A DNA stretch of 64,000 nucleotides, from assembly GCA_050084515.1 (NCBI GenBank), contig CM114271.1, positions 23,560,001 to 23,624,000 on the forward strand, given 5' to 3'. The notes under the pieces are model-generated. The model was not told the origin of the DNA. It ran no database searches and saw nothing but the letters and a program-made list of their open reading frames with translations. This DNA is from Blasia pusilla. Lineage: Eukaryota. Position 1 is the first letter of the stretch. Each line of letters begins with the position of its first letter. Made by a program: the position numbers and the translations under genes. Positions 4,761 to 52,000 of this stretch are shown here, piece after piece.

Positions 4761-5099
4761 TCGATCACGAGGCGAGTCTGTGACCACGTTGGCAGCTTTC
4801 ACAGGTAGTGTTAGCTGGCCATGAGAGTTGTTGGAGGGGAACGCACATGCAGAGGATGTCCCAATAGCGGATAGTCCCACGGAGAGACAGCCCATGGCGG
4901 GTGTCTCTCCCCATGTTGGCGAGACCTCTTCACCATTATGGGGTACGACTCGAGAGCTATAGAGGAGTGCCGACGACCTCGTGAGGCAGGCGTGGAGTCA
5001 TGCTTTTATCCCGGAGCAACAAGAGTCATGTGGCGATTGGGCTCTTGGAGTGGAGACGTTGACCCCACTGGATACCACACCCGTTGTGTGGCAGTGCCT

Positions 5100-6070
5100 A
5101 GAGGAGGGTGTTAGGGTGTTAGATCTCTTCGGAGGGATTAGCACCGGATTGGCTGCAGTATTGCAGGTGGGCATACGGGTGCATCAGTACCTTTATGTGG
5201 AGAGAGATGAGACCGTGTGGCAAGTATCATTACGTCATGTGGCGAGATTGGTCCAGAGGTATCCTAAGTTGTTGCCGATATCTGTAGTACGGGGATATCA
5301 GCATACACTACCCGCCGACATCTCTTTGGTGGGGGCGCAGGATCTGGATAGAGTTGGCACCATTCATTTGGTGATTGTTGGATGGCCATGTCAGGGTCAT
5401 TCATCAGCTGGCCGAGGATTTGGATTGCAAGATCCGAGGTCAGGGATGTTTTGGGAGATGCTGCGAGTAGTACGACACTTGCAAGAGAGTCAAACATGTT
5501 CTCCAACGTACATTTTGGAGAACGTGTCGTTGTTGGGAGACACTCGTGCACGTGTGATGACGAGTGTGCATCAGGGGAGGTCTTGGATGGAACCTGCTGT
5601 GTTGTTAGATGCAGTGAGAGTTGGATCACGTGCCCATCATCCATGACTGTGGTGGACGAATCTGATACCATCAGAGGTACTAAGTCGAGCATACGATGGA
5701 GTCCAGAGAGCACTACATCTCAGAGTGGATGCTATTTTGGGCTCAGGGCGTCAATCTCAGGTGGTGATACGGGATGATAGACCACCGCTGGCCATGGCCA
5801 ATAGAGTGGGGGAGTTGAGGGCAGTCTTACCTACGTTGGTGAGCTTCCTAGCATCCCATGCCTTTCGTCAGGGAGGGCTAGGCATGATTTGGGATGAGGT
5901 GACCGGAGCATTGGAGGAGCCTACAGCATATAAGCGCGCCATGGGGTTGGCTATGGGTACTACCGCGGTGCCAGGGATGACTGAGGCATCCCGGAGATAG
6001 GTGTTGGGGGAGGAGACTGACCTCAACTGTCTCACATGGATAGTCAGCCTAGGTATGGCTGAGCAGAGAT
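5100..6070 (+). pseudogene. C5 cytosine DNA methyltransferase domain (DNMT3/DRM-like) embedded in pol, copy 1
   Basis: Motif I VLDLFGGIS, motif II YVE, motif IV GWPCQGHS, GLQDPRS.MFWEMLRV, motif VI YILENV, motif VIII RAH.P(R)LWWTNL, motif IX-like RAMG. Same reading frame as protease, RT and integrase. Confidence 0.9.
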
Positions 6071-6449: not shown

Positions 6450-7810
6450 TTTAGTATGAGAGACTTGGGTACGTTGAAGGGTCCCGAGATACGGATTGAG
6501 TTGGCTAGTGATACGCCGATCTTTTGTCGACCCTAGAAGTATTCTGATATGGAGCGAGCCTTGATTCAGATCAAGAGTCAGGACTTGTTGGAGGCAGGAC
6601 TTGTTGGAGGCAGGACTTGTGGAGTTATCACATGGGGAGTATGCATCTGCCACAGTCATGCCGGAAAAGAAGGATATGTATGGCAATTGGACGGATAGGG
6701 AGATGTGTGGAGATTGCCGTCCTATCAACCGACAGACGAGGTCAGATCGGTACGCCATGCCTACTTGTGAGGAGATCTTTGATGCGGTAGGGCATGCAAA
6801 GATCTTCAGTACTTTAGATCTCCGTGCTGGCCATCATCAGCTTCCTATCAAGTTAGAGGATAGGGAGAAGACAACATTCTGGGGGATAGATCGGTTTGGT
6901 AGAGATTGCTTGTATCAATGGCGGTTCTTACCATTTGGGTTGAAGAACGCGCCTGCAGAGTTTTAGAGAGTGATGGATAGGATTCTGGCTGGCTTGGAGT
7001 TTGTACGATGTTACATAGATGATATTCTTATCTTCAGTTCCACGGTTGAGGAGCATGAGCGACATCTAGAGGAGGTGTTTCGGCGATTGCAGTTACATGG
7101 ACTGAAGTAACATCCAGGCAAGTGCAGATTCTTTCAGGAGCAGATTGAGTATTTAGGACACACCACATACCCGAGTGGGTTAGGCGTTCAGCGGATAAAG
7201 GTAGAGGCTATTGCGTAGATTCCACGCCCTACATATGTGAGTCGAGTGCGAGCATTTCTTGGACTGGCGAACTTCTATCGACGGTATGTTAAGGATTTTA
7301 GTGTGATCGCAAAGTCTTTGACCTTGTTGACGAGACTTGATCAGGTTTGGTTGTAGGGAGATGATCGTAAGCGAGCATTTTAGGAGCTCAAGGACAGGTT
7401 GATACCCTCACCCATTTTACAGAGACCGGTTAGGGGTCGCCCATTCCAGTTACATACGGATTGGAGCATGTTGGATCTAGGAGCAGTGCTTACTCAGAGG
7501 GATGACGAGGAGACGGAGTTCGTTGTGGCTTACGCGAGCCGATCGAACAACATTGCAGAGGCGAAGTACAGCTCCTACGAGGGAGAGTGCTTGGCTGCAC
7601 TGTGGGCCGTGACACATTTCAGGTGCTATTTATTCGGAAACCCTTTCACACTTATCACTGATCATCAGCCGTTGAGGTGGTTAATGGAGTCCGACAAGCT
7701 TACGGGAAAGCTTGCTAGGTGGGCTCTATTACTACAGGAGTATAAGTTTGAGGTGGTTCAAAGGCCAAGCCGGCTGAACCAAGATGCGGATGGGTTGAGT
7801 CGTAACCCAT
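6450..7810 (+). pseudogene. pol: Reverse transcriptase and RNase H of copy 1
   Basis: MCGDCRPIN, LDLRAGHHQL, PFGLKNAPAEF, YIDDIL, LHTDWS, YSSYEGECLA, ITDHQPL, DADGLSR; several in-frame stops. Confidence 0.93.
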
Positions 7811-8189
7811 GTCCGAGTCAGAGAAACGATATAGGAGCTCGATAGCATGGAGAGAGTGGTGAGGAGATGGTGCCCGATTGGCATGCATCTACCTATCTTT
7901 GTTGGTTGACTATGGCAGGTCAGCCACATGTGATGACTCCAATGGTGGGGTTGGATGATGAATCTTTGGATCTGGAGGTCAATGAGGAGGCAACATGTGG
8001 TCGTGATATCCATGACGACGTGGAGGTTGTGGAGTTCTTGCGCATTGGCGTCATAACAAGCATAGTGAGTGCTAGGGAGCGGGATCGGATCCTATAGATA
8101 GCTAGGAGGTTCAGGTGGGAGGGGACTCACATTTTGCAGGTATGGGGAGATGGTAGGATACAAGTGGTACCTCATCCTTCCCAACGAGC

Positions 8190-9240
8190 ACGTGAAGTGC
8201 GACATGCCCATGAGGAGTTGGGAGTAAAGCGTACTAACAACTTACTCCAGGTTTAGTATTGGTGGCGCGGCATGCATACTAGGGTACAATAGATTGTGGC
8301 CAGATGTATGGTATGTGACAAAGTGCGAGCATCCTTCAATGCTCCCACTCCGTAGTTACATCCTTTTCCGATTATGGGTTTAGGTTATCGGTAGAGTTTA
8401 GACTTTGCGGGACCTTTGCCATTGACGGGGCGTCATCATAGGTACGTGTTGGTGATGGTGGAGCATTTCTCCAAGTGGATAGAGTTGGTGGCACTACCGG
8501 ACAAGGCGAGCAAGGGAACAGCTTATGTGTTTCTAGATTTTGTGCTTAGTCACTTTGGTGCACCGGCGGAGGTGTTGACTAACCAGGGTACCGAGTTCAG
8601 GGGAGAGTTTAAGGCCTTGTGTGATTAGGCGCTGATAGATCACCGCACCACATCCAGAGATCATCCTGAGGTGGATGGGTTGGCGGAGAGAGTGGTACAG
8701 ACGGTGAAGAGAGGATTCCGCAAGTATGGCTTGCAGCGAGGACAGTTGAGGGAGTGGGACCTACAGTTGCCATGGTTGGCTATGGGTTATCGCTTTAGTC
8801 GGTAGGAATCCTTGGCGTCATTTTCACCGTACTTTTTTCTCTTTGGGAGAGAGCCAGATTTACCTACAGCCATTCGACGTGATATGGCGGAGGTGTTAGA
8901 TCTTGATGATCCAGATGTGTGGGTACAAGCATGTTCTCAAAGGGCGGAGGTTTTTCGTAGAGTTATGCCTATGGCCTTTGAGAACTTAGCTATTGCTCAA
9001 CATAGAGATACATTGAGGTACGCGACCGTTCGTGGAGGAGGTTATTGTCCAGGGATTAGGAGGTTTCAACCTGGAGATTACGTGTATTTACAGCATGCGG
9101 CACCCACGATGCTAGATGCCACTGCAGGGCGCACGATCCTACGTATGCGCGAGGTATTACCGACCAGAGTCCTCATGTTGGAGGGACGGGATGGTATGGT
9201 TTGGAAGGATCATGTGCGCAATTGTGCACCATGTCATCTT
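8190..9240 (+). pseudogene. DDE integrase of copy 1
   Basis: H..LG/WWRGM...C..C zinc-binding region, LDFAGPL, VMVEHFSKW, TNQGTEF, HPEVDGLAER, SPYFFLFGREP. Confidence 0.9.
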
Positions 9241-9297
9241 CCGAACGTAGACAGGACATTGGATCCGAGCTTGGCATTGGTACCTACAAGCTTGAGA

Positions 9298-9440
9298 TGT
9301 ATGTTGTGCGGATCAGCGAGGGGTGCAGCCACCATGTTGGTATGTGATGGTTGTTCTCGAGGGTGGCATATGTCATGTCTGACCCCCCCCCTCTTGATGT
9401 GGTTCCCACGGGACGATGGATGTGTCCGAGATGTGTATAG
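9298..9440 (+). pseudogene. PHD finger at the Pol C-terminus (frameshift in poly-C ~9383-9391)
   Basis: CMLC...MLVCDGCSRGWHMSCLTPPL, continuing after a frameshift as DVVPTGRWMCPRCV* = C4HC3 pattern; stop TAG at 9438-9440. Confidence 0.88.
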
Positions 9441-9516
9441 GGTAGTAGGGCATGTGAGAGAGATGTCATATTTTCTATCTGGAGTTGGGGGGATCCAACT
9501 GCCAGCTATGAGGGCG

Positions 9517-9654
9517 GTTGTGTGATCTCCATGTATATGTATGAGTTGATTTTTGTACATGTGTGGATCGACCCGTGTGTGGGAAAGATCGGTGTTGTGT
9601 GGTGTAGATGTGACCAGCGATGTGTGTTGTGTAGCAATATGTATGCGCATGACA
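9517..9654 (+). repeat. Right-terminal repeat B1 (138 bp)
   Basis: Direct repeat of 10137-10274 (8 transitions by eye); ends GCGCATGACA. Confidence 0.92.
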
Positions 9655-9656
9655 AC

Positions 9657-10274
9657 TGTCACATCTGGGTAGCCGATAGGCCGAGATCTATCTTGGATAG
9701 GGCGTAGGAGCCACCGGACTATCTTGAGTGCAACTTTGTCTCACTGTGTCGGATGAGGTTGAGGATAGGTCCATTGTGTCAGGAACGTTGTTTCTGACAA
9801 CTTTCATATTGGGGTCTCTCATAGCTGGGTGACTTGTTGACCAGGTCACCCGCCCCTGGTAACTTGTGTGCGCAGGTTACCAAGGGGAGGGCTATTTTTA
9901 GGGGAAGAGCCTTTTGGCTCTTCCCAACCCTATATAAGAGAGGAAGATGGTTTTCCTAAGCCATCTTTCTCATGTTGAGCCGTTGGAGCACCTCTCTTGT
10001 ATGTGTGTGAGAAAGGACTAGGGTGCTAACGTCCGGATTTCTTGATAGGATAGGATGGACGAGGCTCGATATGCCGATGTAGATTGAGGAGTGGAGTTTT
10101 AGGCTGGGTGTTGCATTTTTACTACTCTTTCTTTTTGTTGTATGATCTCCATGTATATGTATGAGTTGATTTTTGTACATGTGTGGATCAACCCATGTGT
10201 GGGGAAGATCGGTGTTGTGTGGTGTAGATGTGACCAGTGATGTATGTTGTGCAGCGATATGTATGCGCATGACA
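9657..10274 (+). repeat. LTR-like terminal unit A(Y)-B2, 618 bp
   Basis: Begins TGTCACA, ends CATGACA, has CTATATAAG at 9930-9938; last 138 bp repeat 9517-9654. Confidence 0.85.
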
Positions 10275-12622: not shown

Positions 12623-13251
12623 TGTCACGACTTTTTAGGATAGATCGAAGAGATTTGATACAGCGCCTTCATGAGTAGAGGGGGACAGGCTCAGGAGGTC
12701 GGGAATGACCTATTGAAGTCTTGGGAAACATGAGAGAGCAGGTTTCCCCTTCGTTACGGCTCATTTGGAGCCATATAGATAAACTTACTATTTCGGGTAA
12801 ATTTTTTTATGTTTGGTAGAGTTGACTTTCCACTTTGGGAAGTGGTCCTTGACCCGCTACAATTGGTCAAGAGCCAAGGAGGTCACCCGCGAGCATAGGT
12901 TACCGAGGAGAGAGCTTGGGAGAGGGAAGAGGGTATACCTCAAAGAGAGAGAGCTTGAGAGCTCATTCTCTCTTTGTTTAACCTCTTGGCACAAGGCGGC
13001 GGAGCTATGGTCCCTTGCCTTGTGAGTGTAACCCAAGCCTCTCATTAGGAGAGTGGGGTTGGTTTGACATTGAGAGAGACATGTGAGAGCTATGGTGTTG
13101 TGAGAGAGATTTAACCTTGATTTATTGGAGATATTTTGGTACTTCTTGTCTCGATATTTGGATGTCATGAGTTAGCATGGGATCGTGCGTGCTTGTGTGT
13201 ATATTTGTCGACAGCGATGTATGTTGTGTAGTGATGTGTATGTGCACGACA
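12623..13251 (+). repeat. Solo terminal unit A(X)-B', 629 bp
   Basis: TGTCACGAC...GTGCACGACA; flanks CATG/CACG (4-bp TSD, one mismatch). First ~475 bp match the left end of copies 1 and 2; last ~93 bp match the right end of copy 2. Confidence 0.88.
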
Positions 13252-13411: not shown

Positions 13412-14030
13412 TTTTGTGCCCATACACATCGCTACACAACATATATCACTGTCATCGAATAAACACACAAGATACCATACTACTCATGGCATCTAAAAAT
13501 CAGAAGGATCGAGCACCAAAATATCTACAATAAATCACAAGCACTCAAATGTCTCACAATGTGCACAAAAAATACATCTCTCTCTCTCATGTCAAACCAA
13601 ATCCACTCTCCTAATAAGAGGCTTGGGTTACTTACAAGACAAGGAGGATAATAGCTCCGTCGCCTCATGCCAACATGTTCAACAAAGAGAGAATGAGCTC
13701 TAACGCTCTCTCTCTCCTTGGGTATACCCCCTTCCCTCTCCCAAGCTCTCTCCATGGTAGTCTATGCTTGGAAGTCATCTCCTTTGCTCTTGACATGATG
13801 TAGTAGGTCAAGGACCACTTCCCAAAATCAAAAGGCAACTCTTCTTCTAACGATAACTTACTTGAAATGGTAAGTTTCTATAGCTCCAAATGAGTCGAAA
13901 CAAAGGAAAACCCTGCTCTCTCAGGTTACCCAAGGTCTCAACAAGTCATCCTCAACCTCCTAAAGCTATCCTCCAATATCATCAAAGGCGCTCTACCAAA
14001 ACTCATCAATCCATCCTAAAAGACGTGATA
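13412..14030 (-). repeat. Second solo terminal unit A(X)-B', inverted
   Basis: Reverse-complement homology to 12623-13251 over its length; flanks GAGT/GAGA (4-bp TSD, one mismatch). Confidence 0.82.
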
Positions 14031-30769: not shown

Positions 30770-31772
30770 TGTCGCGCCCCTACTCTAGTTGAACGTCAAT
30801 ATTTAGTGTTGCGGAAGCGTACGTTCAGTAGGACACGATCTCATTGCCGATCTGCACCCAAATACGCACTCTCGTTAGTCGAGTGTGGGCCAACCAGCGT
30901 TCCCAACCCACCGAGTTCTCAACTCGGCGTCTCATCAAGCTCAAACCTTCCTTAATTCCTAGTTTCCAAAACATGGCAAGTCCTTCAAGACTTGGAACAG
31001 ACTTCCTGATTAGTCCAGGAACCTAAAAAGGCACTTACACACTTAGCGATCCCAACTGTTCAACAGACCTTGTGCGAGTTCCAAACCGAGACCCAAGTAA
31101 TTGAGTTGCGGGGTGAAATCCAAGAGGGATGTCTAACATCGCCTCCGTAGACTTGGTTCAGGTTTTCCAACCCAACCCCAAACTCTCGATCCGTTCCATG
31201 CCCTTGAGTCGCCGCATGGCGCCCCAAAGTGGGGTTCAAGTTCCAAGCACTCTGGGAGACCTTCCCCCTTACTAGTACTTATGGGGTTCTCCAATAACCC
31301 CCCCTTGGAAAAGGAGGGTCGGGCCCTTCATTGTGGCCCTCAACCGACTCTACATAGAGTCATTTCCGGGTTGTTTCTCAGCCGCTGCTTATGCGTTTGC
31401 AAAGATCTTTAGTGTGTTTGAACCGGCTTTCCATAAGCCTTCCAACTCACCCTTGTTTAATCCAAACGCATCTTTTCGCTAAAAGTGATGGTTATAAATA
31501 CAGTCGGAAACTCTCAAACGCTAGTGGCGTTCCAAATCCGGATTCCTTCCTTTGGCAATCCACTTTCTAGACTCGATTCCTTTCAAGTCTTATTCCTCGT
31601 TTGGTCCAGGTTTCTCGGTCGAGACCACAACATCTGAAACGCGAAGCCTCGCTTGCGTCTCGTCTCTTGTCTCTTCTTCAAGACTACTCCAACGTGCAAA
31701 CCATCTTAGCGTGAGCCCGCTAATGTTCCGATGTTCCGCTTTGGCACTCGTTTGATCATGAGGGTCGTGAAA
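30770..31772 (-). repeat. 3' LTR of the chromovirus (~1003 bp)
   Basis: Matches 36224-37145. Confidence 0.92.
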
Positions 31773-36010: not shown

Positions 36011-36223
36011 CCCTGACTTCGAGTGTTGTCCTCCTCTCGACTTTGCATGAAGTTCCACTCATTTTGCTACCGGGGCAGACGACTCTCCTGGATTGTGCAG
36101 GCCCCCACTCCACACTCTTTTGAACGTCTCCTTATTTTTTTACTTCTTCGAAAAACCTTTTGGCTCACAAGGTTTCTAGGTTTGGGCCTCATCGCCCCCA
36201 ATCCGCTCCGCTAGCTTCAGAAG

Positions 36224-37145
36224 CCGATCTGCACCCAAATACGCACTCTCGTTAGTCGAGTGTGGGCCAACCAGCGTTCCCAACCCACCGAGTTCTCAAC
36301 TCGGCGTCTCATCAAGCTCAAACCTTCCTTAATTCCTAGTTTCCAAAACATGGCAAGTCCTTCAAGACTTGGAACAGACTTCCTGATTAGTCCAGGAACC
36401 TAAAAAGGCACTTACACACTTAGCGATCCCAACTGTTCAACAGACCTTGTGCGAGTTCCAAACCGAGACCCAAGTAATTGAGTTGCGGGGTGAAATCCAA
36501 GAGGGATGTCTAACATCGCCTCCGTAGACTTGGTTCAGGTTTTCCAACCCAACCCCAAACTCTCGATCCGTTCCATGCCCTTGAGTCGCCGCATGGCGCC
36601 CCAAAGTGGGGTTCAAGTTCCAAGCACTGGGAGACCTTCCCCTTACTAGTACTTATGGGGTTCTCCAACACCCCCCCTTGGAAAAGGAGGGTCGGGCCCT
36701 TCATTGTGGCCCTCAACCGACTCTACATAGAGTCATTTCCGGGTTGTTTCTCAGCCGCTGCTTATGCGTTTGCAAAGATCTTTAGTGTGTTTGAACCGGC
36801 TTTCCATAAGCCTTCCAACTCACCCTTGTTTAATCCAAACGCATCTTTTCGCTAAAAGTGATGGTTATAAATACAGTCGGAAACTCTCAAACGCTAGTGG
36901 CGTTCCAAATCCGGATTCCTTCCTTTGGCAATCCACTTTCTAGACTCGATTCCTTTCAAGTCTTGTTCCGCGTTTGGTCCAGGTTTCTCGATCGCGACCA
37001 CAATATCTGGAACGCGAAGCCTCAATTGCGTCTCGTCTCTTGTCTCTTCTTCGAGACTACTCCAACGCGCAAACCATCTTAGCTTGAGCTTGATAATGTT
37101 CTGATGTTCCGCTTTGGCACTTGTTTGGTCATGAGGGTCACGACA
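36224..37145 (-). repeat. 5' LTR of the chromovirus, inner end deleted together with PBS and most of gag
   Basis: Matches 30846-31772 and abuts the gag C-terminus directly. Confidence 0.9.
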
Positions 37146-38709: not shown

Positions 38710-40395
38710 GCATGAGAACTTAAGTTCTGATAGCCCTTGTTTGGAAAGGGAGAAGGAGTGAGGAGGAGGAGAGCTCTTCATTCAATCGGAATTGAAGTTC
38801 TGCTTTCCCTTGTGAATGTGGTTGAGGAAAGGCAAGGAAGAAGCTACCATGTAGTTTTCCCTCGGTGAGAGGTTGAGAAAGGTTTGGGGTGCCGCTAGTA
38901 TGGAGGATCTAGCGCCACTAGTTTGGAGCCGTTACTGGAGTATAGCTAAGACTGCTAGCCACAAAGTTGGTGGAGTTGAGGGAGGCATGAGAACTTAAGT
39001 TCCAATTCAGAAGGACCCTCCCAAGAAGTAGTTTGGAGCAGAGCGGCAAAGTGAGAATAAAAAATGAGGTTTAGATTCAACAGCAAGCCGAGTCATCTGA
39101 AGGGCGCGGCATTGCACGGCACGGCGCGACAAGGGTGGCAAGGAGCAAGAAAAGGGATTTGGAACTCAAGTTCCATATCGAATAGAGTTGAGCCAAGGCG
39201 TGGTTCACGTGCATGCTAGCCATCTCGACAGCGTAGTGGACATTGGCGTGGCGGGAGTGACAAGGAAGCAAGGAGGATTTGGGACTCAAGTTCCAATTCT
39301 GTCTCAATTGGAGAACTATGGAGCGTCTCAACTGCAATTGACTACTACGGCGTGGCACATTGCGGCGGCGTAGGGAAGTGAAGTGAGGAGGCAATTGGAA
39401 CTTCAATTCCCATTCCACTCATCACTTGTGGGTCTTCTCTAGAAGAAGTTGCAGTGGATAGGAAGGAGGAAATTGGAACTCGAGTTCCCATTCCGCTCCT
39501 CAGTTGTGTTGGGTTCTCTCTATAGGTGGAGAGAATAGTGAGGGAAATCGGAACTGAAGATCTGATCCCTTTTGGCGCGGACCCAAGAAGTGAGGTTGGT
39601 GACACTCTCCATTTCAGCATGGCGTTCAGAGTAAGGAGAGAAGAATTGGAACTCAAGTTTCCATGTCGCGGATTCTCAAGAGGGGCGCAACTCTTCGTCA
39701 AGCGCGGCGAGAGGAAGGAGGAAGAATCAGAACTGTGGTTCTTTCTATCAAGTGCGGCGCATCGCGGCATGTGAAGAAGGGAGGGAGGAGTGAGCAATTG
39801 GAACTGAAGTTCCAATTCCTTCATTCTTTTGTGAAGTCAGGAAGGAAGGAGTGAGCCCAGAGCATTCGGACGTGAAGTTCCAATTCGACACTCTTTTAGA
39901 TGAAGGGAATTTCGTGACGTCCAACTTCCGGGCAAGTTGGCAAAGCAGCACACCAATCGGAACTTGGGTTCCGATTGGGATTAGTCCATTGCCCTTTTCT
40001 ATCCCGAGGTAGTCTCTTTTGGTGTGGGCGAGAATCGGAACCCAAGTTCCAATTCCCACCTTCGTCTCCAACGGATCTGGTTTTTGTGGCGCGAATCGGA
40101 ACTGAAGTTCCCATTCACATGTGAGTTTGGCGCAGCGAAGCGTGGCGGAGAAGTCAGTGGGAATCCAGCACTCTTTCAGGTGAAGGGAATTTTGTGACAT
40201 CCAACCTCCGGGCGAGTTGGCAAAGCGGCGCAGCAATCGGAACCCAAGTTCCAATTGAGATTATTCCGTTGTCCTTTTCTATCCCGAGGTAGTCTCTTTT
40301 GGTGCGGGCAAGAATCAGAACCCAAGTTCCAATTCCCACCTTAGTCTCCAACGGATCTAGTTTTTGTGGCGCGAATTGGAAGTGAAGTTCCCATT
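38710..40395. repeat. Array of ~18 dispersed palindromic motifs, consensus AATTGGAACTCAAGTTCCAATT
   Basis: Copies near 38716, 38787, 38991, 39159, 39279, 39395, 39472, 39548, 39645, 39726, 39797, 39866, 39956, 40033, 40094, 40236, 40313, 40374. Confidence 0.8.
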
Positions 40396-40441
40396 CACAT
40401 GTGAGTTTTGGGCAGCGAAGCGTGGTGGAGAAGTGAGCGGG
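39889..40441 (+). repeat. 280-bp tandem duplication
   Basis: 39889-40168 aligns with 40169-40441. Confidence 0.9.
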
Positions 40442-43400
40442 AGGTAAGGCACACAAGGGAATTTATTCACTTACCTTGCTGCTTATGGAGATGTTTGAGG
40501 GATGATTTCTGGGTGACACACATTGGGGATAAGTGCGTTGGTGAGTGCACGGCACTACCACGACTATTGTAGAGAACTTGGTGGGATGGATGTATACCAC
40601 ACTAGTCAGGAGTGACTTATTGTGCGGGCTATTTGCTGAGTGTTGATCTCAAGTGAGATAAGTAGGGGCGTGTCCACAATTTAGGCATTGTCTAGTGCAG
40701 AGATAGTGGCTCCGGAGCGAGTCATAGTAGTTTGCAGGTTTCACCACGGCGCATCCACAGAGTATTGGGGAGCGTGATAGTGGTAGAAATGGTGGAGGAT
40801 TTACACAGAGTGGGCTAGGTATCGAGGATTTCCACACGCGGAACCAACTCAGCCGCGAGTTGTAGTTTCTCCAGAGGTGACATCAACAGATTTTGAGTTA
40901 CGTGAGACGCCACAGAGTGTCGCGAGTGTCGCCACACCGTTGTTGTGGGACATGGATGATCGTGATACATATGGGTCCATGAGGAAACCCTGACGATTCT
41001 CAGGCACGGTGTGAACCATCAAGTCGGATGATTTTATGGAAGAGTTTGATAGTTGGAGCGATGGAGAGAGGATGCGAAACGGACAAGGATTCGACCCTTT
41101 TATTGCGTGGAAGGAACTTTTTCAACATCTAGAGGGTTGCGGGTACCTCGGCCCGCACAGACATGGACTTTGTCTGTGTGCAACCTTGATTACTGTGGAG
41201 TCGAAGTAAGTCCATGTCCATGATTGCTAGTTCCAATGGGGGGATTTTTGGAAATTTTTGTGGGGTTTGTCTCTTGATATGGATGGAGGGGACGATGGTA
41301 TCCTATTGGTGAGTTGTATCTATGCCTAGACCCAAACCAACCGCATGTGTGGGGACTTACGGATCGTCCTGTCGAGGATATAAAATGCCCTTGTTGTCCT
41401 GAATTCTTTGCTCGTTCAAGAATTTGGAACCACTACGTGGCAAAACATCCTAACTTTGACAGATTTCGATGGATGGTTCCTCCATTCAACCATGGATGCT
41501 CTCCAGTGCTTCCCGCATTATCACACCCTCCTAAGTCATGCGAATGGTTGAGGGAGGATCCACCTTGGCAACATCATAGATCTCTCCGAGACCCATTTTC
41601 CCTGCCCAAGGTTATTCCATATGATCCCCTATGCTTTTCGGGATGACCTGCGTTATGTTTTTCTCCTCCCCTTATCTATCTCTCTTTGTGTCTACAACTT
41701 CTCCTTTCAAGATGATGTCTCCGCTATACACAAGAAGGTTGTGGTCCAACTGAGGCATTTTCAAGGAGATGATTGGAAGTTTGTATAGGGCGAGTTTGTG
41801 GCATATGCTAGAGGTAGCACCTCACTTGTTTTCCAGGTGGATGATTTCGTAGCAGCCAGATTGCGATGATGTAGGACACTTGGACGAGGTTTTGAGTACT
41901 CAGAGGCTTGTCACGTCTTTTAGGATAGATCAGTGAGATCTAATAGAGCGCCTTCGTGAGTAGTGGAGGACACGCTCAGTAGGTCGCGGATGACCAGCTG
42001 AGGCCCCACGAAACTTGAGAGAGCAGGTTTCTCCTTCGTTTCGGCTCATTTGGATCCATATTGAGGAACTTACTATTTTAGGTAAGTACCATTTTGAGTA
42101 TATGATCGACTTTCTATTTTTGGTAAGTGGCCCTTGATCTCCTACATGAGGTCAAGAGCCAAGGAGGTGACTTGGGAGAATAGGTTACCATGGAGAGAGC
42201 TTGGGAGAGGGGAGGGGTATACCTCAAGGAGAGAAAGCTTGAGAGCTCATTCTCTCTTTGCATGAGGCGGCGGAGCTATGGTACCTTGCCTTGTGAGTGT
42301 AACCCAAGCCTCTCAATAGGAGAACTGGTTTGGTTTGACATGAGAGAGAGTGCACACCTTTGAGAGCTATGGTGTGAGATGGTGTAGAAAGAGATTGGAT
42401 CTTACTTTACAAAGAGAGAATGAGAGAAAGAGAGAAAGAGAGAATGAGAGAATGAGAGAGTGAGAGAGTGAGAGAGTTTCATGGGGGAGCTCGCTGGTCA
42501 CTCGCTGTTTTTGCAGGTTGAGGACCGTGTTCCCCGTTTAGCGGCTCATGGGAGTGCTCACCGGAGCAAGGGTTGCTTTGATTGTTCTTTGCATTTGCCG
42601 ATCTTTCGTGTGGAAGAGTGGCGCGCGGAGGCGCTGCCCAATTTTTTATAGGGATTGAGTATGGGGGCGGGTTGCTCCATGCTGGTCCTCTCGGGAGCAC
42701 CATGTAGCTTGCTGATTTGTATTTTTACAGGTTTTACATTTTTGTTGGGAGAAATCAGCTCAGAAGCGCTGCCGAATTTTGTGTAGGAGAAAGAGACATT
42801 GAGCTTTACGACAGTCCCCGTCAGTTTTTACTCGAATGTCCGATTCTAAATATTTCTTGACGCTATCGTAGATCGTGAAGTTCTGCAGGTTGTGCAAAAA
42901 ATAGTGCGCAATTTGGAGTTGCGAGCAGAAAGGTATGGTCAATCTTGCAAAACTACCATTGCTAGGCGATTTTTAGGGTTAAATTGTTCAAACCCTAAAC
43001 CAGCCGCCACGCCGGCGGCGGCCGTCGCCGTCATAGTCACCGTCAACGGTCCGCCATCGATGGTAAACCGTCACCATCAACGGTCAACCATCACGATCAG
43101 CGGTCAACCGTCACTGTCAACGGTCCACCGTCCATTGTCCACCCTTTGGGTACCATTGCAGCCATTACGGAGTGGAGGGTCTTCCACGACGTTCGTTGAT
43201 TCCCTGACTTGCTAATTGGAGGAGTTGTCTCCACGATCAAGTTGGGGTCGAGATTTACAGTTGCTAAGGAGCGACATCGACATGTGTTCAGGTTACCCAT
43301 TCTGGTCCTTTATCCTACACGTGTGAGGGATTCTGGGATTTGGGTAGTTTATTTGGGGATATTGGGTGTGTGGATGTTGAGAGCATCATTTATGTATGTG

Positions 43401-43884
43401 GTTTAGGGGACATAGACCTGTGTGGGATGTCCGGAGTTGAGGGTAGGTTGTCGATGAGATGATAGCCTGGTCGATTTGCCGCATCACGCCGCGTGTTGCC
43501 GCACGTTACACGTCTCGGAGAGAGAGACTGTAGATCGAGTGCCGCATGTTTGGGATGAGTGATTGAGGGATTACTCATGAGGTTCAGAGCGATCGGGTGA
43601 GAGGGGCACGAGGGTCATCACGGAGTCCGTTCGGGACTTTGAGAGGCGAGGTGGTGAACCCGAGAGTAGCTCTAGAGGTTTTACGCGGAGTGGCGCAAGG
43701 TTCTGAGGGTCTCCACGTGAGGGACCACCTCGATGTCCTTCTGTGTCATCGTCAGACGAGGGGGAGGGTGTAGAGGAGTTTGTGAGCACATCGCCACACA
43801 TTGTGAGTGGTCCTACCAGTTGGGCGTACGAGATGGACGGACGGGGGGTAGAGGACGCGTAGGTTTTAGTGTGTGAGGCACGAT

Positions 43885-45985
43885 TGAGTTGCACGATTTT
43901 ATAGCAGAGTTTAGGAGTTGATGCAACTCCCAGCGGGTCAGGAACTCTAGAGAGTTCAACCCGTTTACAACATGGAACGGTATGTTCCAACATTTAGAGG
44001 GGGCGCCCATGGACCATTACCATGAGTTCTCTCAGAGATATGCATGTGAGATCGAGGCGTGGAGGCTCTACTATGGCCCACATTATGTGTCATGGACGGA
44101 GCCATTCCCAGATGAAGAGGAGGAGTTAGGAGAGGCTACTGCCTCTTCCACTAGTGACGTTTTAGGAGGGATCACTCGCACGGGAGCAGTTGCACGGTCT
44201 AGTCGGGTTCGTCCCAAGTTCAACCCTGTGGTTGAGTTCTTTGTTGAGTTGAGGGCGAGCTACCAGGGGGTACGGACGAAGAAGTTGCGGAGCATCCAAG
44301 ACTTCCAGAGGCGCCCAGGTGAGAGTTTGCGTGAGGCTTACACTTGCTTGCGCCGGTTGATCAACGTCACTCAGGGGGTGACAGAGGCTCAGACTATCCA
44401 GTCATGGTACGCGATGCTGGATCGGACCCTGCGGACATGGGTGCGGGAGGGGTGCTTGTTATGAACACCTCCCCTACATTGAGAGATGTTCTTAGGACCA
44501 CCGAGAACATTGAGCGCAACATGGAGGAGGAGAGCGTAGCCACCATGGGTCCTCGGCGAGAGTAGTCACGATTGTCTGCACCACCTGTGCAGCAACGTGG
44601 ACTCCGAGATAGGTCGACTATGGCACCACGAGCTTAGGGAGGATACCGGGAGGCCGTGCCACAGAGACATGCGCCTTCATATGCGGCTCAGCAACATCCG
44701 CCTCCTATTACTTGTTGGTCATGTGGTGGAGCCCATCATCAGCGCGATTGCACTCGTCAAGGTCATGGACGTGTGCCTCAGCATGGAGGAGGAGATGGTG
44801 AGGTAGAGTACCACCACCTAGACGCGCCGAGGGACACGCCGGACGTGAGGTTGCGATGGCTGCTCAGATACACCAGCTACAGGAGCAGATTGCCGCTATG
44901 GCATTGAGGTTACCCGATGCCAGATCCGTGGCATCGACATCATATGGAGCAGCCAAAGATCTAGAGGATCCTGGATGGATGTGTGGGGTTGCCCAGATGG
45001 AGGCCGCCGTAGTTCTGACGCGTGGAGCAGCCGCACAGTTGGATCCACAGCGAGGGGAAGCCAGAAGACAGACTAGGCTTCCTCAGTCTTTCACGTCCTC
45101 CGAAGCGATGAGGACCCCATCGATGGATCCTCATCAAAGTTCCTGGAGAGTTGGTGATGTTGTTGGTGTGCAAGCACGGAGGGCGATGGGAGAAGCGAGT
45201 GCGACGACTCCTATTGTTGATGCTCAGGAGGGGCATATGTCGAGCACGTTGTTGGGGGCGGCCACCGTTGTGTACCGCACTCCTTTATTTTCTGCTTCCG
45301 ATGTTATGACGTTGGGGGCTACGCCCGCCGAGGCTTTTCGGCTGGTCGCTTCACTATGTGAGCACGGAGTTGGAGTTTCTGCATCACATTCAGAGGTGAT
45401 TGGAGAGGAGGTGATGGACTAGCCCTTAGAGCGGATGCTCGGGCCGTCCACGTCAGATTCATGGCAGGCTACGGCTGCTAGGATGGCGGAGATGCCCGCT
45501 AGACCCGCGATAGAGCGTGCCATGGCTTCTCCTGGTGTTGTGTTGCGGGATAACCGAGGAGAGGTCTTCCAGTTGGTGAGTCCTGGAGGTAGGGCTTTAA
45601 GTCCGCAGCGCGTCTTGTTGGATTCAGGAGCGCAACCCTTGATGTTGGGGAAAGCGTCATTTAGAGGATTGGGCTTGACGAGAGCCGATGTAGAGCGTTG
45701 TCCATTACGGATATAGACATCCTTGGGTGGAGCGAGTACCATACAGTATCTCACCCGACAGGAGGTCCTGGTGAGGATTCGCCCGAGACATCCTACAGAT
45801 GAGTCCGTGGCGCGCGCCAAGGCGATAGTGACTGATGCAGAGTCCTACGACATCTTGGTTGGTGAAGTAGTGTTATACCCGATGGGGTTTTCCCTGGATT
45901 ACTGGGAGGAGTCGGCCCTACTGGACCAGGATGGCGTCGGTGATGGGCGCCTTAGCTCATTACCCGTTCGATTCACAGTGCGATG
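43885..45985 (+). pseudogene. gag: gag and protease of copy 2
   Basis: FNPFTTWNGMFQHLEGAPMD, FQRRPGESLREAY, CWSCGGAHHQRDC, VLLDSGAQPLMLG, YDILVG. Confidence 0.85.
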
Positions 45986-46329
45986 ATCGAGCAACGGCCG
46001 GGAGAGATGGCGACCTTAGCAAAGATTTAGCAAAGCGGTGCCATCACTTGGCCTAGTGATTTGATTGAGGGACATGTCCATGCAGAGGATACTCCCGTTC
46101 CTGACATTTCTATGGAGAGGAGTGTTATGGTAGCTGCATCATTCCGTGGAGGAGAGGTGCCGTTGTGGGGCTCGGACCGAGGAGCTTCAACGATTGGCGA
46201 GATGAGCACGTCATCACGCGTGGAGCGAGGCGTTTGCACCGAGCGTGGCAGTCGAGGAACTGAGGTAGCAAGGAGTGCTACGATGACACCCTTGGATACC
46301 ACACCCATTGTGTGGTGTACCCCGGAGGA

Positions 46330-47290
46330 GGGTATTTGAGTGTTAGATCTCTTTGGAGGCATAAGCACTGGGTTAGCTACTTTTTTGTAGGCAGGAGTGC
46401 AAGTACAACAGTACCTGTATGTGGAGAGTGATGATGTTGCAAGGCGCGTCTCACTACGACATGTGGCGCAATTACGCCTACGTTTTCCCGACTTATTATC
46501 TGCGTCCGCAGTACAGGGGTTCCAGAGTTCCCTACCAAGGGATATTTTGTTGTTGGGGGCGTAGGACTTAGAGCCGGTAGGGACCATTGATTTGGTCATT
46601 TCCGGTTCGCTATGTCAGGGCCAATCGAGTACTGGACCAGGCAGCGGGTTGGCTGACACTCGGTCCAGGTTGTTTTGGGAGATGTTCAGGGTCTTACGGT
46701 AGTTGCAGGAGCACCTGTCTCGTTCTCTAGCGTACATTCTAGAGAATGTGACGATCTTAGGAGACTCTTGGTCACAGGTGGTGACGAGTGCTCATCAGGT
46801 GCGTGCCTGGATCGGCCTACCAGTGTTCTTGGATGTGGCGAGTGTAGGTTCTAGAGCCCATCGCCCGCGTCTATGGTGGACCAACTTGGTGCCCCATGCG
46901 ATGTTATGGAGGGCGTATGCGAGAGTGGAGCGCCCCTCCCATTTATTAGTGGATTGCATTCTGGATCAGGTCGTCAATCATAGGCAGTGAGGCACGATGA
47001 TCGACCACCGTTGACTGTGGTCAACAGAGTAGGCACGCCGCGGGCAGCCTTGCCCACGTTTGTGAGTTTTCCCGCTTCCTATGCATACAAGGAGGCCTGT
47101 CCTGGCTTGGTTTGGGATGACCAGGTTTAGCGGTTGGTGGAGCCCAACGCCAACGAGAGAGAGCGAGCGATGGGATTTCCCACAGGAGTGACGGCAGTAC
47201 CATCAGTGTCAGAGGCATCACGACGTCATGTCTTGGGTCAGGCGATGGACCAGAACTGCTTGACATGGATCCTCGGCTTGGGAGGAGGTG
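46330..47290 (+). pseudogene. C5 DNA methyltransferase domain of copy 2 (stops; motif IV reads GSLCQ)
   Basis: VLDLFGGISTG, YLYVE, IDLVISGSLCQG, DTRSRLFWEMFRV, YILENV, SRAHRPRLWWTNL, ERERAMGF. Confidence 0.88.
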
Positions 47291-47619
47291 GCGGCGTCGT
47301 ATGAGATCGCGACAGATCACAGCGGTTGCGTTGGTGAGCCCCATGCCTACCGAGACGGTGGAGGCAGTGGCTGGGGGTGAGACCCGAGGAAATCTACGCA
47401 CCAGGGGAGATCAGGAGAGACACCCTTGGACTTCTTGGGATGTTTTGCAAGTACGCAAGGAGATGATAGCCACAAAATCGAGCGTGGTTTCGGGCACTAC
47501 ACGTGGAGGAGATCAGAGTTTAAAGTTGGCTGCAGGAGAGCGGCCGAGTGTTGTTGTTCGAGACGGGGTTGCACCATAGCAACCACTGATACCCGCGCCG
47601 GAGAGTCCTACCGTAGTCA

Positions 47620-49058
47620 CGATGGAGACTTGGGAGCCAGATATGGGCCCTAAGTTGACAGGAGGAGAGCGGCGCCGAATACATCAATTCCTCAGGAGTT
47701 ATAGGAGCTGCTTTGTGTTAAGCATGGAGGATTTGGGTACGCTGAAGGGACCGGGGATCCGCATTGAGTTGTCGAGTGATATGCCGATCTTCCGACGACC
47801 CCTAGGTACTGATGATATGGAGAGGGCTCGATTGAGTAGGAGCCAGGACTTGGTCGGAGCAGGACTAGTGGAGATGTCGCATGGGGAATATGTATCTGCC
47901 ACTGTCATGCCCGCCAAGAAGGATGTGCATGGCAACTGGACGGATAGGCGGATGTGTGGGGATTACCGACCTATCAATCGGCAGACGAAGTCCGATAGGT
48001 ATGCCATGCCCACCCCTGAGGAGATCTTTGATGCGATTGGTCACACAAAGGTCTTTAGGTCATTGGATTTGCGAGCCGGATACCATCAGCTAGCTATCAG
48101 ATTGGAGGACAGGCAGAAGACAGCATTTTGGGGCATCGATCCTCACGGGAAGGATTGTTTGTACCAGTGGTGGTTATTACCATTTGGGTTAAAGAACGCC
48201 CCGACTGAGTTTTAGAGGGTCATGGATAGGATCTTGGCTGGTCTGGATTTTGCTAGGTGTTATATTCATGACATCGTAGTCTTTAGCGCCACGGTTGAGG
48301 AGCATGAGCAACATCTAGAGGAGGTGTTTCGACGATTGCAATTACATGGGCTGAAGCTACATCCAGGCAAGTGGAAGTTCTTCTACGACCAGATTGAGTA
48401 CTTGGGTCATACGATATACCCAGGGGGCCTTGGTGTTCAGCTGACGAAGGTAGAGGCTATCTCACACATTCCACGCCCTACACATGTGAGTCGTGTTCGT
48501 GCATTCATGGGATTGGCGAACTTCTATCGGCGATACGTCAAGGGATTCAGCAAGCCGCTGACCTTGCTGACCAAGGTGGATCACGAGTGGCACTGGGGGG
48601 ATGAGCAGGGGCGGGCATTTCAGTTGCTCAAGGACAGGTTGACGTTCGCATCCATCTTGAGGAGACCGATCAGGGGGGCGTCCTTTCCAGTTGCACACAG
48701 ATTGGAGCATGTTGGGGCGGTGCTCACCCGGCATGATGATGAGGGTAGAGAGTTCGTGGTGGCTTACGCTAGCCGCTCGAACAACGCTGCAGAGGCAAAG
48801 TACAGCTCGTATGAGGGTGAGTGCTTGGCTGGGGTGTGGGTTGTCGCGCATTTCAGGTGTAACTTATTCGGAAACCCCTTTAACATCATCACTGATCATC
48901 AACCACTGAAGTGGTTGATGAAGTCCGACAAGCTTACAGGGAAGCTTGCGAGATGGGCTCTGCTGTTGCAGGAGTATGATTTTCAGGTGGTACATAGACC
49001 TAGGATGCTCAACCACGATGAAGATGGGTTGAGTCGTAACCCATGCCCGAGTCAGTGA
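47620..49058 (+). pseudogene. pol: RT and RNase H of copy 2
   Basis: RMCGDYRPIN, LDLRAGYHQL, PFGLKNAPTEF, YIHDIVV, YSSYEGECLA, TDHQPL, DGLSR. Confidence 0.92.
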
Positions 49059-52000
49059 GATGCGACTGGAGTTCGATGGCATGGAGAGAGTGATGAGGAG
49101 TCGGTGCCAGGATGGCACGCGTCAACCTATTTAGGCATGTTGGCTATGGAAAGCCAGAGTGTGGAGACTTCGATGGCGAGGTCTAGTGGAGAGTCCTTGG
49201 ATTCCGAGGCCATTGAGGACACGACAAGTGGCCGAGATATTCATGATGATGGAGTAGTCTTAGAGTACCTTGGATGCCATGAGTTAGCATGGGATCATGC
49301 GTGTTTGTGTGTGTGTTCGGTGACAGCGATGTATGTTGTGTAGCGATGTGTATGCGCATGACAGGCTGCTCGTACCCTTCGCTTGATGGATATAGCACCT
49401 CGGTCTACTATTACCATTGATACCTTTCGTAGGCTACATTCTCGCTTAACCGTTAATATTCCTGCTTTTTCACGTGACTTCCATCTTAACATAGTTGTAT
49501 GTCTTGACCTATCCCTCTTTGCATGGGCACTCAAATGTTCTTCTAAGATTGGGGCAGGAGGGTTGTCATGTATGAACACGTTCGTGATTTCTTTCCTCCC
49601 AAGGACTTTGCCTGTGGCTTTTTGGAGTTGCTTTAGATGACTTCTCACCTAGCTTAGGGGAGAGTGCCAACCGTAGTGGCTCAAGTATTGGGAGTGCGGC
49701 GACTTTTGGTGTTGTTGAAGGAGGGTGGAGGTATTCGTCCAATCCCCATAAGTGTGGTGCTCTTGCACTTGGTGAGTCGCACTATCGCTTTGCAACTTTG
49801 TGAGGCTTTCCAGTCACACTTGAATCAGCATTAGTTTGGAGTTGCTATGCCCACATGCTGTAAGATAATAGCCTTAAGTTTGAAGGCTTGTCTCGGTGTA
49901 CATCCTGAGTGGGTGGTCCTCTAAGTGGATGTGGAGAACGCCTTCAACTTGATGTCACAAGCAGCAGTCTTCATAGAGTTGAGGGACGCATGTGGCCCCA
50001 TTTGGAGCCTCATTCCGTTCATGCACCCTTTCTATGGGGCTTCTTCATCCCTCTATTTCCACCATGGTCGGTTTGAGGAGGAGGTCACGGTTTTGGAGTC
50101 CGCCACTGGGACTCGTCAGGGTGACCCTTTCGATGAAGCATTGTTTGCTTTGGCTCATTACCGGACGTTTCTTTCTATGGTGGAGGCTTTTCCATGTTGC
50201 ATTTTTTTGTGGTTGGTAGATGATACTCATCTTATGGGCCTTGGAGATCTAGTCGTCCCTGCACTTCAAGACCTTTCTGCACAGTTTGCACGGGTCGATC
50301 TTGGAGTGAAGGTAGGGAACTGCAGGTCTTCATTTACATGACGTGACACATGTTAGAGGGCTTCGCGTCCTAAGAGTCCCACTCCAGAGCGAAGACTTTA
50401 TTTCGAGTTTATTGGTGAAGGCTCTTATCGAGGACTTCCTTCACGTTGATGATCTCACGAGGATTGATGACCCTCCAAGTCACCTACACCATTATCTCTT
50501 CTTGTTTTGCTCGTTGACCTTGCTATCCCCTTGAATTGTTTGGATCTGGATGTGAGTGTTATCGGAGTCTGGATCCACTTGGTGTACATTTAGCACGTTG
50601 TCAAGTCAGGGATGAGAGGATTTCCACTCGCGATGTTGTTCGAGATATCATGTTGAATATTGCTCGCGAGAGTGGCTTCGACGTGCAGAGAGAGAGGCGC
50701 TACTCCATGCGTGATTCCTTTATTCGTGCTCATATTTATATGACACAAGAGACTGGGGTGGTGGCGGCGGACGTTATAATGACAGATCCTATGCCGTCTT
50801 CTATCAAGAAGTGGGTTTCCATTTGCTATTCTGATTTTCTATTATAAACAATGGATTTCATATCTTTGCTGTATAGCCAAGCCTATGGGCTCATGTGATT
50901 CTACGTTATAACCAATAGGCTTATGTACGACTCAGCTATAGGCACACAGATTTTTAGATGTCCTCATGCCGTAACTTATAGGTTAATACTTTATTTTTCT
51001 GCAAACTCCATGTGGAAAAAAGAAACCGATTGTGAACCATAGTTCTGCACACTCGTAAGGAAAAATTGTTTTCTCAAATCCCGGACGGATTTTTCATCAT
51101 GCAGTTTTAGTCCCAAGAGACGGAGTGGATGCCAGACATACTGAGAAATGCGACCCGCGGAATGAAACTAGCCGAAGGGGGATTACCTAAAACTTAGCAT
51201 GTGGGAAGTGTACGATTGTCCATCCTCAATTATTAATCACATTTTCCACGTGATTTATTTTATCGGACAAGGGAAGGTTGTAATTCTTGGTCGTAGATGG
51301 GCGAATAATCTAACTTTTGAGTGCACATGGTCATTTACGTTGTCTGCTGGGGAGACTTGTGGATACTACAGTCCGAAACGGAATTCAAGGAAATTGATCC
51401 CTCCTTCGGTGAGGGACAAGTGATCTAATTCGAGATTGTACACTAGTTCGGGATTGTACCATCCGCTGATACAGTTTTACAGCGAAAGATTTCACTACTT
51501 CAGGTGAAATCTTACGCTGAAGTCCTTCAACAATTTGCCGGGTCCACGGAAAATACACTGCCGTCAACTCTAAAATACGCTTAAACCCACGATCGTATTC
51601 GCAAGAGACCCATTCATATCAAGTCCTTTGATGGTCCACGACAAAAATTTCCTCGTATCAAATCTGGAAGATCTGGACAACTTTCATTTCTACCAAAATT
51701 TCGAGGTCCCAAGAACAGAGTTGAAAGACAGGAGACGATTCTGTTACAAACTCACGGGATGTCATTCAATTGTAAGCCCCATAGAGGGAACATCCATAGA
51801 GATGGGTGATTTGAAGGAGACTCATATTTGTGTGTCGAACTAGTTACAAAATGGATTGCCTTGATTACAAACATTGCCGGGGAGTCTGTCCGAATTCCTT
51901 GAACCGTGAACAAACGAAAGGCTACAAAAATTGATAGCAGCCAAAAGAAGCTCGGATGAAGAATGAGCTATTGAGAATCTTAGAGGGAAACCACCTAAGA

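Follow-up and report, generated by a model that had tools for sequence, protein, structure and literature searches.

Split direct repeats, candidate self-priming sites and a recurrent internal junction in methyltransferase-bearing Ty3/gypsy elements from Blasia pusilla and related metagenome loci

Retrotransposons of the long terminal repeat (LTR) type are defined, and are found, by their paired LTRs. In Tf1, the RNA's own 5′ end folds back and primes minus-strand DNA. Neumann et al. 2019 (PMC6317226) predict self-priming for the Tcn1 Gypsy clade of mosses as well. A different arrangement was described by de Mendoza et al. 2018 (PMC5890265) for a Klebsormidium nitens Gypsy with a Dnmt3 in Pol: according to their Fig. 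4c legend, the repeat structure of KnitGypsy-Dnmt3 "is the same as that of a DIRS retrotransposon" and its domains are Gypsy, the DIRS arrangement being defined in their Fig. 1 legend as A-coding region-B-A-B. The main-text passages on this element give no primer-binding site (PBS), polypurine tract, target duplication or junction detail. In the literature searched, which excluded supplements and subscription journals, the split-repeat layout of a Gypsy element appears in print only as this figure-legend remark, and we found neither priming sites nor a junction nor duplications described for an element of this sort. KnitGypsy is named there in a single paper, and the titles found on split direct repeats deal with tyrosine-recombinase or other elements. 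The layout itself is not new: it has already been published for the Klebsormidium element, it is rare, and it is still unexplained. Here we analyse a 64,000-nucleotide stretch of the Blasia pusilla genome (assembly GCA_050084515.1, contig CM114271.1, positions 23,560,001 to 23,624,000; hereafter the window) that carries two related elements, copy 1 at its left edge and copy 2 at 41909-49363, both on the + strand. The best explanation as a whole, to which we assign a probability of roughly 0.7, is that both belong to a Ty3/gypsy lineage of the green lineage whose Pol includes a Dnmt-type methyltransferase and whose integrase carries a C-terminal PHD finger, and that the native layout is A1-PBS-coding-G-run-B1-(2 nt)-A2-B2, with a DDE integrase and 4-bp target duplications.

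An earlier note on this DNA had described copy 2 as a Gypsy element that integrated as one unit and has two different ends instead of paired LTRs. The perfect 4-bp target duplication on which this was based is indeed there (GGCT at 41905-41908 and GGCT at 49364-49367, + strand), as are the tips TGTCACG...CATGACA, which form a 7-bp near-perfect inverted pair. Self-BLAST of the window finds no direct repeat within 41909-49363; A is not followed by B' at the 5′ end, again as claimed. The yardstick for both parts is an A-B unit of the type we call alpha, 629 bp long, at 12623-13251 (+). The left end of copy 2 (41909-42375) matches this unit at 80% identity, and multiple alignment carries its A1, of alpha type and beginning TGTCACG, to ~42410 (41909-42410, +, matching the initial ~500 bp of the 629-bp unit and also the inverted unit at 13412-14030, both of whose ends match B'); the ~470 bp first given for A therefore becomes ~500 bp. 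The right end, B' (49270-49363, +, ending CATGACA), matches 13158-13251 at 88% over the last 94 bp of B, close to the ~93 bp of the note. Copy 1 begins 19 bp before the window, and positions 1-537 align with 41928-42451 at 91%; multiple alignment bears out the claim that it shares with copy 2 the junction of A with the leader, which is purine-rich. At its 3′ end, over the pol stop codon, copy 1 has B1 (9517-9654, 138 bp, overlapping the stop codon and ending CATGACA), a 2-nt spacer AC (9655-9656), A2 (9657-10136, 480 bp, beginning TGTCAC and containing a TATATAAG box) and B2 (10137-10274, 94% identical to B1), all on the + strand, and the B tail is accordingly present at both 9610-9654 and 10230-10274. 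This order, B1-AC-A2-B2, is the 3′ half of the split-direct-repeat layout A1-coding-B1-A2-B2. The unit at 12623-13251 was considered as a 3′ LTR of copy 1 and rejected, because B1-AC-A2-B2 (9517-10274) already follows the pol stop and the unit has a 3/4 flank match of its own.

The same order recurs in related elements. Using an alignment of 14 integrase-PHD homologues, we took 80 related loci from metagenome contigs; two families can be told apart among them, X and Y, with 61-74% and 46-51% identity, respectively, to the integrase-PHD open reading frame (ORF) of the window, and their arrangement was tallied by BLAST with one A and one B per family. After the integrase-PHD region, B-A-B is present in 23 of the 80 loci and a single B followed by unrelated flank in 29, with smaller numbers showing a B-A cut short (5), a cut B (5), A-B (2) or no detected B (16, of which 11 have less than 800 nt downstream). 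Counted by distinct flanks, these amount to 18 B-A-B and 25 single-B insertion sites, 43 in all, over the two families. The complete A1...B1-A2-B2 is found in L054, L060 and L065, and L029 shows A1...B1-A2 to the contig end; in these four loci, whose 5′ end lies within the contig, A1 and A2 are 85-90% alike. Neither a B after A1, as an ordinary 5′ A-B would have it, nor the combination of A-B LTRs at both ends with a tRNA PBS that would speak for a conventional element was found in any of the eight loci with a visible 5′ end (L003, L004, L005, L008, L029, L054, L060 and L065). The B1/A2 junction reads ...ACA, two nucleotides, TGTCAYG in 20 of 20 loci (spacer AC in nine, GC in ten, GT in one), and the junction of copy 1 is the same, with AC. 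In L060 a perfect 4-bp duplication (ACCT/ACCT) brackets the whole A1...B2 unit, and perfect duplications also flank single-B copies (L004, ACTA/ACTA; L008, TACA/TACA), the flanks of L065 and L003 matching at three of four positions. A nested, self-targeted insertion as the origin of B-A-B was rejected, since the L060 duplication encloses the entire unit. Across these loci the split layout is evidently a property of the lineage, not an assembly artefact and not a private accident.

Pfam recognises DNA_methylase, RVT_1, RT_RNaseH and PHD in copy 1, where integrase motifs are visible in the translation, with frame breaks; no protease match was obtained by Pfam. The C-5 cytosine DNA methyltransferase domain of copy 1 lies at 4963-5646 (PF00145, E 1.3e-09), its reverse transcriptase (RT) and RNase H at 6565-7845, with frame breaks, and its integrase at 7846-9525, comprising a zinc-binding region and DDE core (frame 7801, with stops) and a C-terminal PHD finger in ORF 8806-9525, all on the + strand. 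The domains of copy 1 are ordered RVT_1, RT_RNaseH, integrase, PHD, in keeping with the Ty3/gypsy Pol order protease-RT-RNase H-integrase with a DDE integrase. Short duplications and TG...CA ends, likewise a Ty3/gypsy trait, are represented by copy 2, with perfect 4-bp duplications also in L004, L008 and L060. Two identical full LTRs are not found, copy 2 having no repeat and the relatives having A1...B1-A2-B2, and in place of a tRNA PBS after the 5′ repeat there is a self-complementary site. A methyltransferase in Pol, as in KnitGypsy-Dnmt3, is present in copy 1 and in L029 and L054, where PF00145 lies upstream of RT; the A-coding-B-A-B layout of that element is seen in the 3′ end of copy 1 and in the relatives, and copy 2 keeps A and part of one B. 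L008 yields Pfam matches to RNaseH, Integrase_H2C2 and rve. The integrase-PHD ORF has 119 longer homologues with rve, PHD and often PF00145, several of them metagenome polyproteins with PF00145, and its homologues carry PF00665 and PF17921. The top named homologue is a Marchantia polymorpha protein (76% identity); further sources are Calypogeia, Klebsormidium, Pleodorina, Tetrabaena, Haematococcus and Cymbomonas, with the Klebsormidium proteins (P0019 and P0085) at 47-53% identity.

No TGG-type tRNA PBS was found directly after A in the window copies, as the earlier note had observed, and ARAGORN found no tRNA gene in the window. A self-complementary site is present instead. In both window copies, a stretch of 15-16 nt that starts within the final bases of A1 is exactly reverse-complementary to an A-internal segment. 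For copy 2 the segment is 42246-42260 (CTCATTCTCTCTTTG, +), the predicted RNA 5′ end, and its 15-nt complement, the predicted self-priming PBS, lies at 42410-42424 (+), with a purine-rich simple repeat right after it; a TATA stands at 42218-42221 (+), 28 nt upstream of the segment. In copy 1 the segment is 319-334 and its 16-nt complement 495-510, both on the + strand. Exact complements were also found in family X (L003, 12 nt; L029, 10 nt; L004 and L005, 9 nt each) and in family Y (L054, 15 nt; L060, 11 nt; L065, 15 nt), so that nine of ten elements have exact complements of 9-16 nt, and the sequence differs among the window copies, X and Y. In a shuffle test the observed length was reached by none of 500 shuffles in five of the ten elements, the 15 nt of copy 2 among them. 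TATA or TATAAA stands 28-33 nt upstream of the internal segment in eight of the nine A copies examined, in all three families, and in minimum-energy folds of three RNAs starting at the segment, all three paired their first 12-15 nt with the post-A1 site. The predicted pairing between the A-internal segment and the post-A1 site covaries across the three families. A putative primer-binding site is present, and its signature is that of self-priming of the Tf1 type: in silico, the 5′ end of the transcript, whose start is predicted, is complementary to the post-U5 site. At the other end, 57 of 63 loci have a G-run (at least 5 G within the 14 nt upstream of the first B), whereas the background frequency is 0.7%. 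Among the exceptions, L023 and L033 are A/B joints, and the run is interrupted in L003, L053, L076 and L078. A decayed G-run of copy 1 (9507-9517, +) aligns with the CTAGGGGGGCG tract found ahead of B1 in the family-X elements.

These signals can be assembled into a scheme. Transcription would start ~30 nt after the TATA inside A, and it is quite likely that the RNA 5′ end then self-primes on the 10-16 nt after A1; as a first step this end would fold onto the 10-16 nt and prime minus-strand DNA, as in Tf1. A self-priming site at the end of A1 would make the end of A the end of U5. With somewhat less assurance, the G-run probably primes plus-strand DNA, the first base of B then being the start of U3. 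Given these two sites, the repeat built by RT would be B-2nt-A and the complementary DNA (cDNA) would read (B.A)-coding-(B.A). The genomic ends are the start of A and the end of B, with TG...CA and 4-bp duplications, and are thus not the tips of such a cDNA, which would imply that an internal junction is cut. We tentatively propose, at somewhat less than even odds, that integrase bypasses the cDNA tips and cuts the inverted-repeat junction B/2 nt/A inside the repeat. Two such cuts on a linear cDNA would give a single-B copy, A-coding-B. The full form, A1-coding-B1.A2-B2, would require first a head-to-tail joint of the cDNA tips (the end of A to the start of B), of the kind present in a 2-LTR circle or left by a template jump, and then a cut at the 5′ junction. 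The A2/B2 joint is located exactly where the cDNA tips would meet, and copies differ there by 1-2 nt, which agree either with the initial bases of the PBS or with the final G of the run. The repeat built by RT may not be in register with the ends on which integrase acts; the genomic element would then be a circularly permuted LTR provirus, and the tip joint would be obligatory before cutting, a possibility that we hold no more firmly than the internal cut. A 3′ R is retained in the B-A-B form alone, which should accordingly be the one that replicates. Later B1xB2 or A1xA2 recombination could equally well have produced the single-B copies and the A-B units.

Several observations weigh against this scheme and the layout behind it. 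A circle cut at either junction predicts a permuted product, A-B.A-coding-B, which was found in none of the eight loci with a visible 5′ end. The 80 loci represent two families, and because many copies are kin by descent, they cannot be counted as independent events. Simple dinucleotide slippage could account for the commonest variant of the A2/B2 joint, an extra AT. The flanks of L054 show no duplication, the complement after A1 in L008 (family X) is only 6 nt, which is chance level, and L029 A1 is the one A copy in which the TATA is mutated. Coding could be what conserves the G-run, which is located within the end of the pol ORF or beside it. In the window, A2 of copy 1 is unrelated to A1, and there is no clean example in which A1 equals A2. 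Finally, the transcript start and the cDNA ends are predictions from sequence.

The alternative that survives best, improbable as we judge it, is a DIRS-like route, in which a sub-genomic RNA running from inside A1 to inside B2 would be copied with the B1-A2 junction as a bridging template, the ends would be restored through a circular or terminally redundant cDNA, and a DDE integrase would open the B2-A1 joint. PAT/Ngaro-type DIRS elements, as they are described in PMC8969392, PMC7192593 and PMC5890265, have this repeat layout, and the B/2 nt/A junction is kept in the window as well as in 20 of 20 loci. However, a PBS-like complement exactly at the end of A1 and a G-run exactly at the start of B1 are unneeded in the DIRS model and belong to ordinary two-jump LTR reverse transcription. 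The DIRS hallmarks of a tyrosine recombinase and no target duplication are also missing, the split direct repeats A1...B1-A2-B2 being the one that is present: an integrase is encoded rather than a tyrosine recombinase, and the duplications are of 4 bp.

A still less probable alternative holds that positions 9657-10274 of copy 1 are a solo repeat of a sister family that inserted by chance 2 bp past the end of copy 1, the true layout being A-coding-B. The flanks CAAC and GAAC agree at three of four positions, A2 of copy 1 is unlike its A1, and single-B copies with perfect duplications do exist (L004 and L008). Yet B-2nt-A-B recurs with the same spacer at 18 distinct sites, the L060 duplication brackets the whole A1...B2, and B1 of copy 1 is 94% identical to its B2 although the two share only ~45 bp with the other B copies of the window. 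Least probable, and already contradicted, is an ordinary LTR element damaged twice, in which one deletion removed the 5′ B and the PBS, a second removed integrase to most of the 3′ LTR, and copy 1 inherits the first: the 3′ deletion of copy 2 is real, and the A-B units resemble solo LTRs with 3/4 flank matches, but a 15-16 nt self-complement stands directly after A1 in both copies and, with other sequences, in families X and Y, none of the eight loci whose 5′ end is visible has a 5′ A-B, and B directly follows the pol stop, with B-2nt-A-B at 18 distinct sites. The native split layout, with self-priming at A1 and a G-run at B1, remains the explanation that we favour.

Copy 1 is not a uniform representative of this layout. 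Its A1 (1-499, +, alpha type by BLAST and alignment, the first 19 nt lying outside the window) and the shared junction are followed by 538-925, which has no homology to the corresponding 42452-43204 of copy 2 (~390 and ~750 bp). Positions 926-1587 are again 90% alike in the two copies, 1588-2440 (854 bp) are without counterpart in copy 2, and the coding parts are just 66-75% alike. The A2 and B of copy 1 belong to a different subfamily from its A1, A2 being unrelated to A1 past the first ~40 nt. Since the 5′ 1.6 kb (A1, PBS and leader) is far nearer to copy 2 than the coding region is, and A2 and B are of another subfamily, copy 1 is a composite whose breakpoint lies between 1588 and 2440. A search of the window for a PBS matching the predicted primer of A2 returned only the segment itself, so the 5′ end of copy 1 is from another subfamily, and a copy in which A1 is unlike A2 is not a fresh product of reverse transcription.

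Copy 2 retains a gag-like ORF remnant (43922-44464, ~66% to copy 1 2441-2987), a decayed methyltransferase region (46280-47120, 67% to copy 1 5056-5897) and RT with RNase H (47580-49058; Pfam RVT_1 and RT_RNaseH). Its pol ends ~300 bp past RNase H and is without integrase, apart from an N-terminal remnant at 49059-49271, all of these features being on the + strand. The protein-level match to copy 1 extends to ~49271, in the integrase N-terminal region, and homology to B begins at 49270; it follows that a single deletion, with its left edge at the end of the remnant, fused pol to the last 94 bp of B. With this deletion copy 2 lost its integrase and PHD finger together with the G-run and the beginning of B. 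Aberrant first-strand transfer was considered as the cause of this shape and rejected, since a 5′ end formed in that way would lack a U3-type A. Copy 2 is a dead, defective copy of the common single-B class, and for copy 2 itself the result is ordinary. The earlier note had argued, from the junction shared with copy 1, that the lack of B' after the 5′ A was no private deletion, which stands; the 94-bp right end is a private defect of copy 2. Its suggestion of a different route of end regeneration is partly supported: there are no paired full LTRs, but repeats do exist, in split form. The statement that copy 2 lies inside a long interspersed nuclear element was not borne out: 12 different flank ORFs have no Pfam match even at E <= 10, and the one lead is ORF 49925-50341, whose nearest Atlas clusters have RVT_1 in 31-33% of members (score 0.94-0.95).

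Other repeats of the window and of the metagenome loci were recorded as well. The alpha unit at 12623-13251 has flanks CATG and CACG, a mismatch that corresponds to a C-to-T change at CG. An alpha-like A-B unit lies on the - strand at 13412-14030, with flanks TCTC and ACTC on its own strand; the two units are inverted, 160 bp apart, and each has a 3/4 flank match. A 274-bp tandem duplication of 89% identity (39889-40162 and 40169-40442) stands just upstream of the copy 2 flank. A 921-bp direct repeat pair of 97.6% identity (30846-31766 and 36223-37139), 4.5 kb apart, looks like an ordinary paired-LTR element, from which it follows that the assembly resolves normal LTR pairs. Among the metagenome loci, L023 (1541-1817) and L033 (3321-3602) of family X have integrase-PHD, then the last 160 bp of A, then B, which suggests a deletion of B1 and the first half of A2. 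L059 (2299-2724) and L066 (4517-4942) have B-A-B with A2 shrunk to 77 bp, and their identical flank marks them as one site sampled twice. In L011 (3361-3878) an inverted partial A follows A2 in place of B2. L055 carries a family-X A copy (9701-10025) 8 kb downstream of a family-Y element on one contig, and families X and Y therefore share a host genome.

A split-repeat Gypsy lineage is invisible to programs that look for LTR pairs, or is mis-annotated by them. The lineage is widespread, with homologues in liverworts, Klebsormidium, volvocine algae, Haematococcus and Cymbomonas. The PBS at the end of A1, the G-run at the start of B1, the B/2 nt/A junction and the 4-bp duplications together make an under-described replication scheme testable, one that touches the old question of whether a retroelement integrase acts on an internal or circle-type junction. 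In retroviral 2-LTR circles and in IS3-family circles, inverted ends abut a few bp apart in a junction that a DDE enzyme can cleave, and the retroviral junction is a by-product. Were the out-of-register reading true, a junction of the 2-LTR-circle type or a template-jump product would be an obligatory intermediate and not a dead end.

The closest described system is KnitGypsy-Dnmt3 (PMC5890265, by its figure legends), which has the Gypsy domains, the methyltransferase within Pol and the A-coding-B-A-B repeats; compared by description and protein matches, it differs in its host lineage, which is likely another, since the nearest named relative of the window elements is a liverwort protein. PAT/Ngaro-type DIRS elements, as described in PMC8969392 and PMC7192593, have A1-internal-B1-A2-B2 and an internal junction that mimics joined termini, but they have a tyrosine recombinase and no duplication, whereas the elements described here have a DDE integrase, 4-bp duplications and TG...CA ends. 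Tf1/sushi and Tcn1, as treated in PMC6317226, are likewise without a tRNA PBS and have post-U5 sequence complementary to the transcript 5′ end; they have ordinary paired LTRs and chromodomains, in contrast to the split repeats and PHD finger found here. Gypsy-7a_cRei of Chlamydomonas (Craig et al. 2022, PMC9940879, Fig. 6 legend) is also a Gypsy with a PHD finger, and its left LTR lacks 8 bp with which the right LTR ends, which resembles on a small scale an arrangement with A on the left and A-B on the right; it is active in laboratory strains, and its LTRs are otherwise paired and long, unlike the split repeats of the present lineage. The junctions of retroviral 2-LTR circles differ in that here the abutted junction is a fixed internal part of the genomic element.

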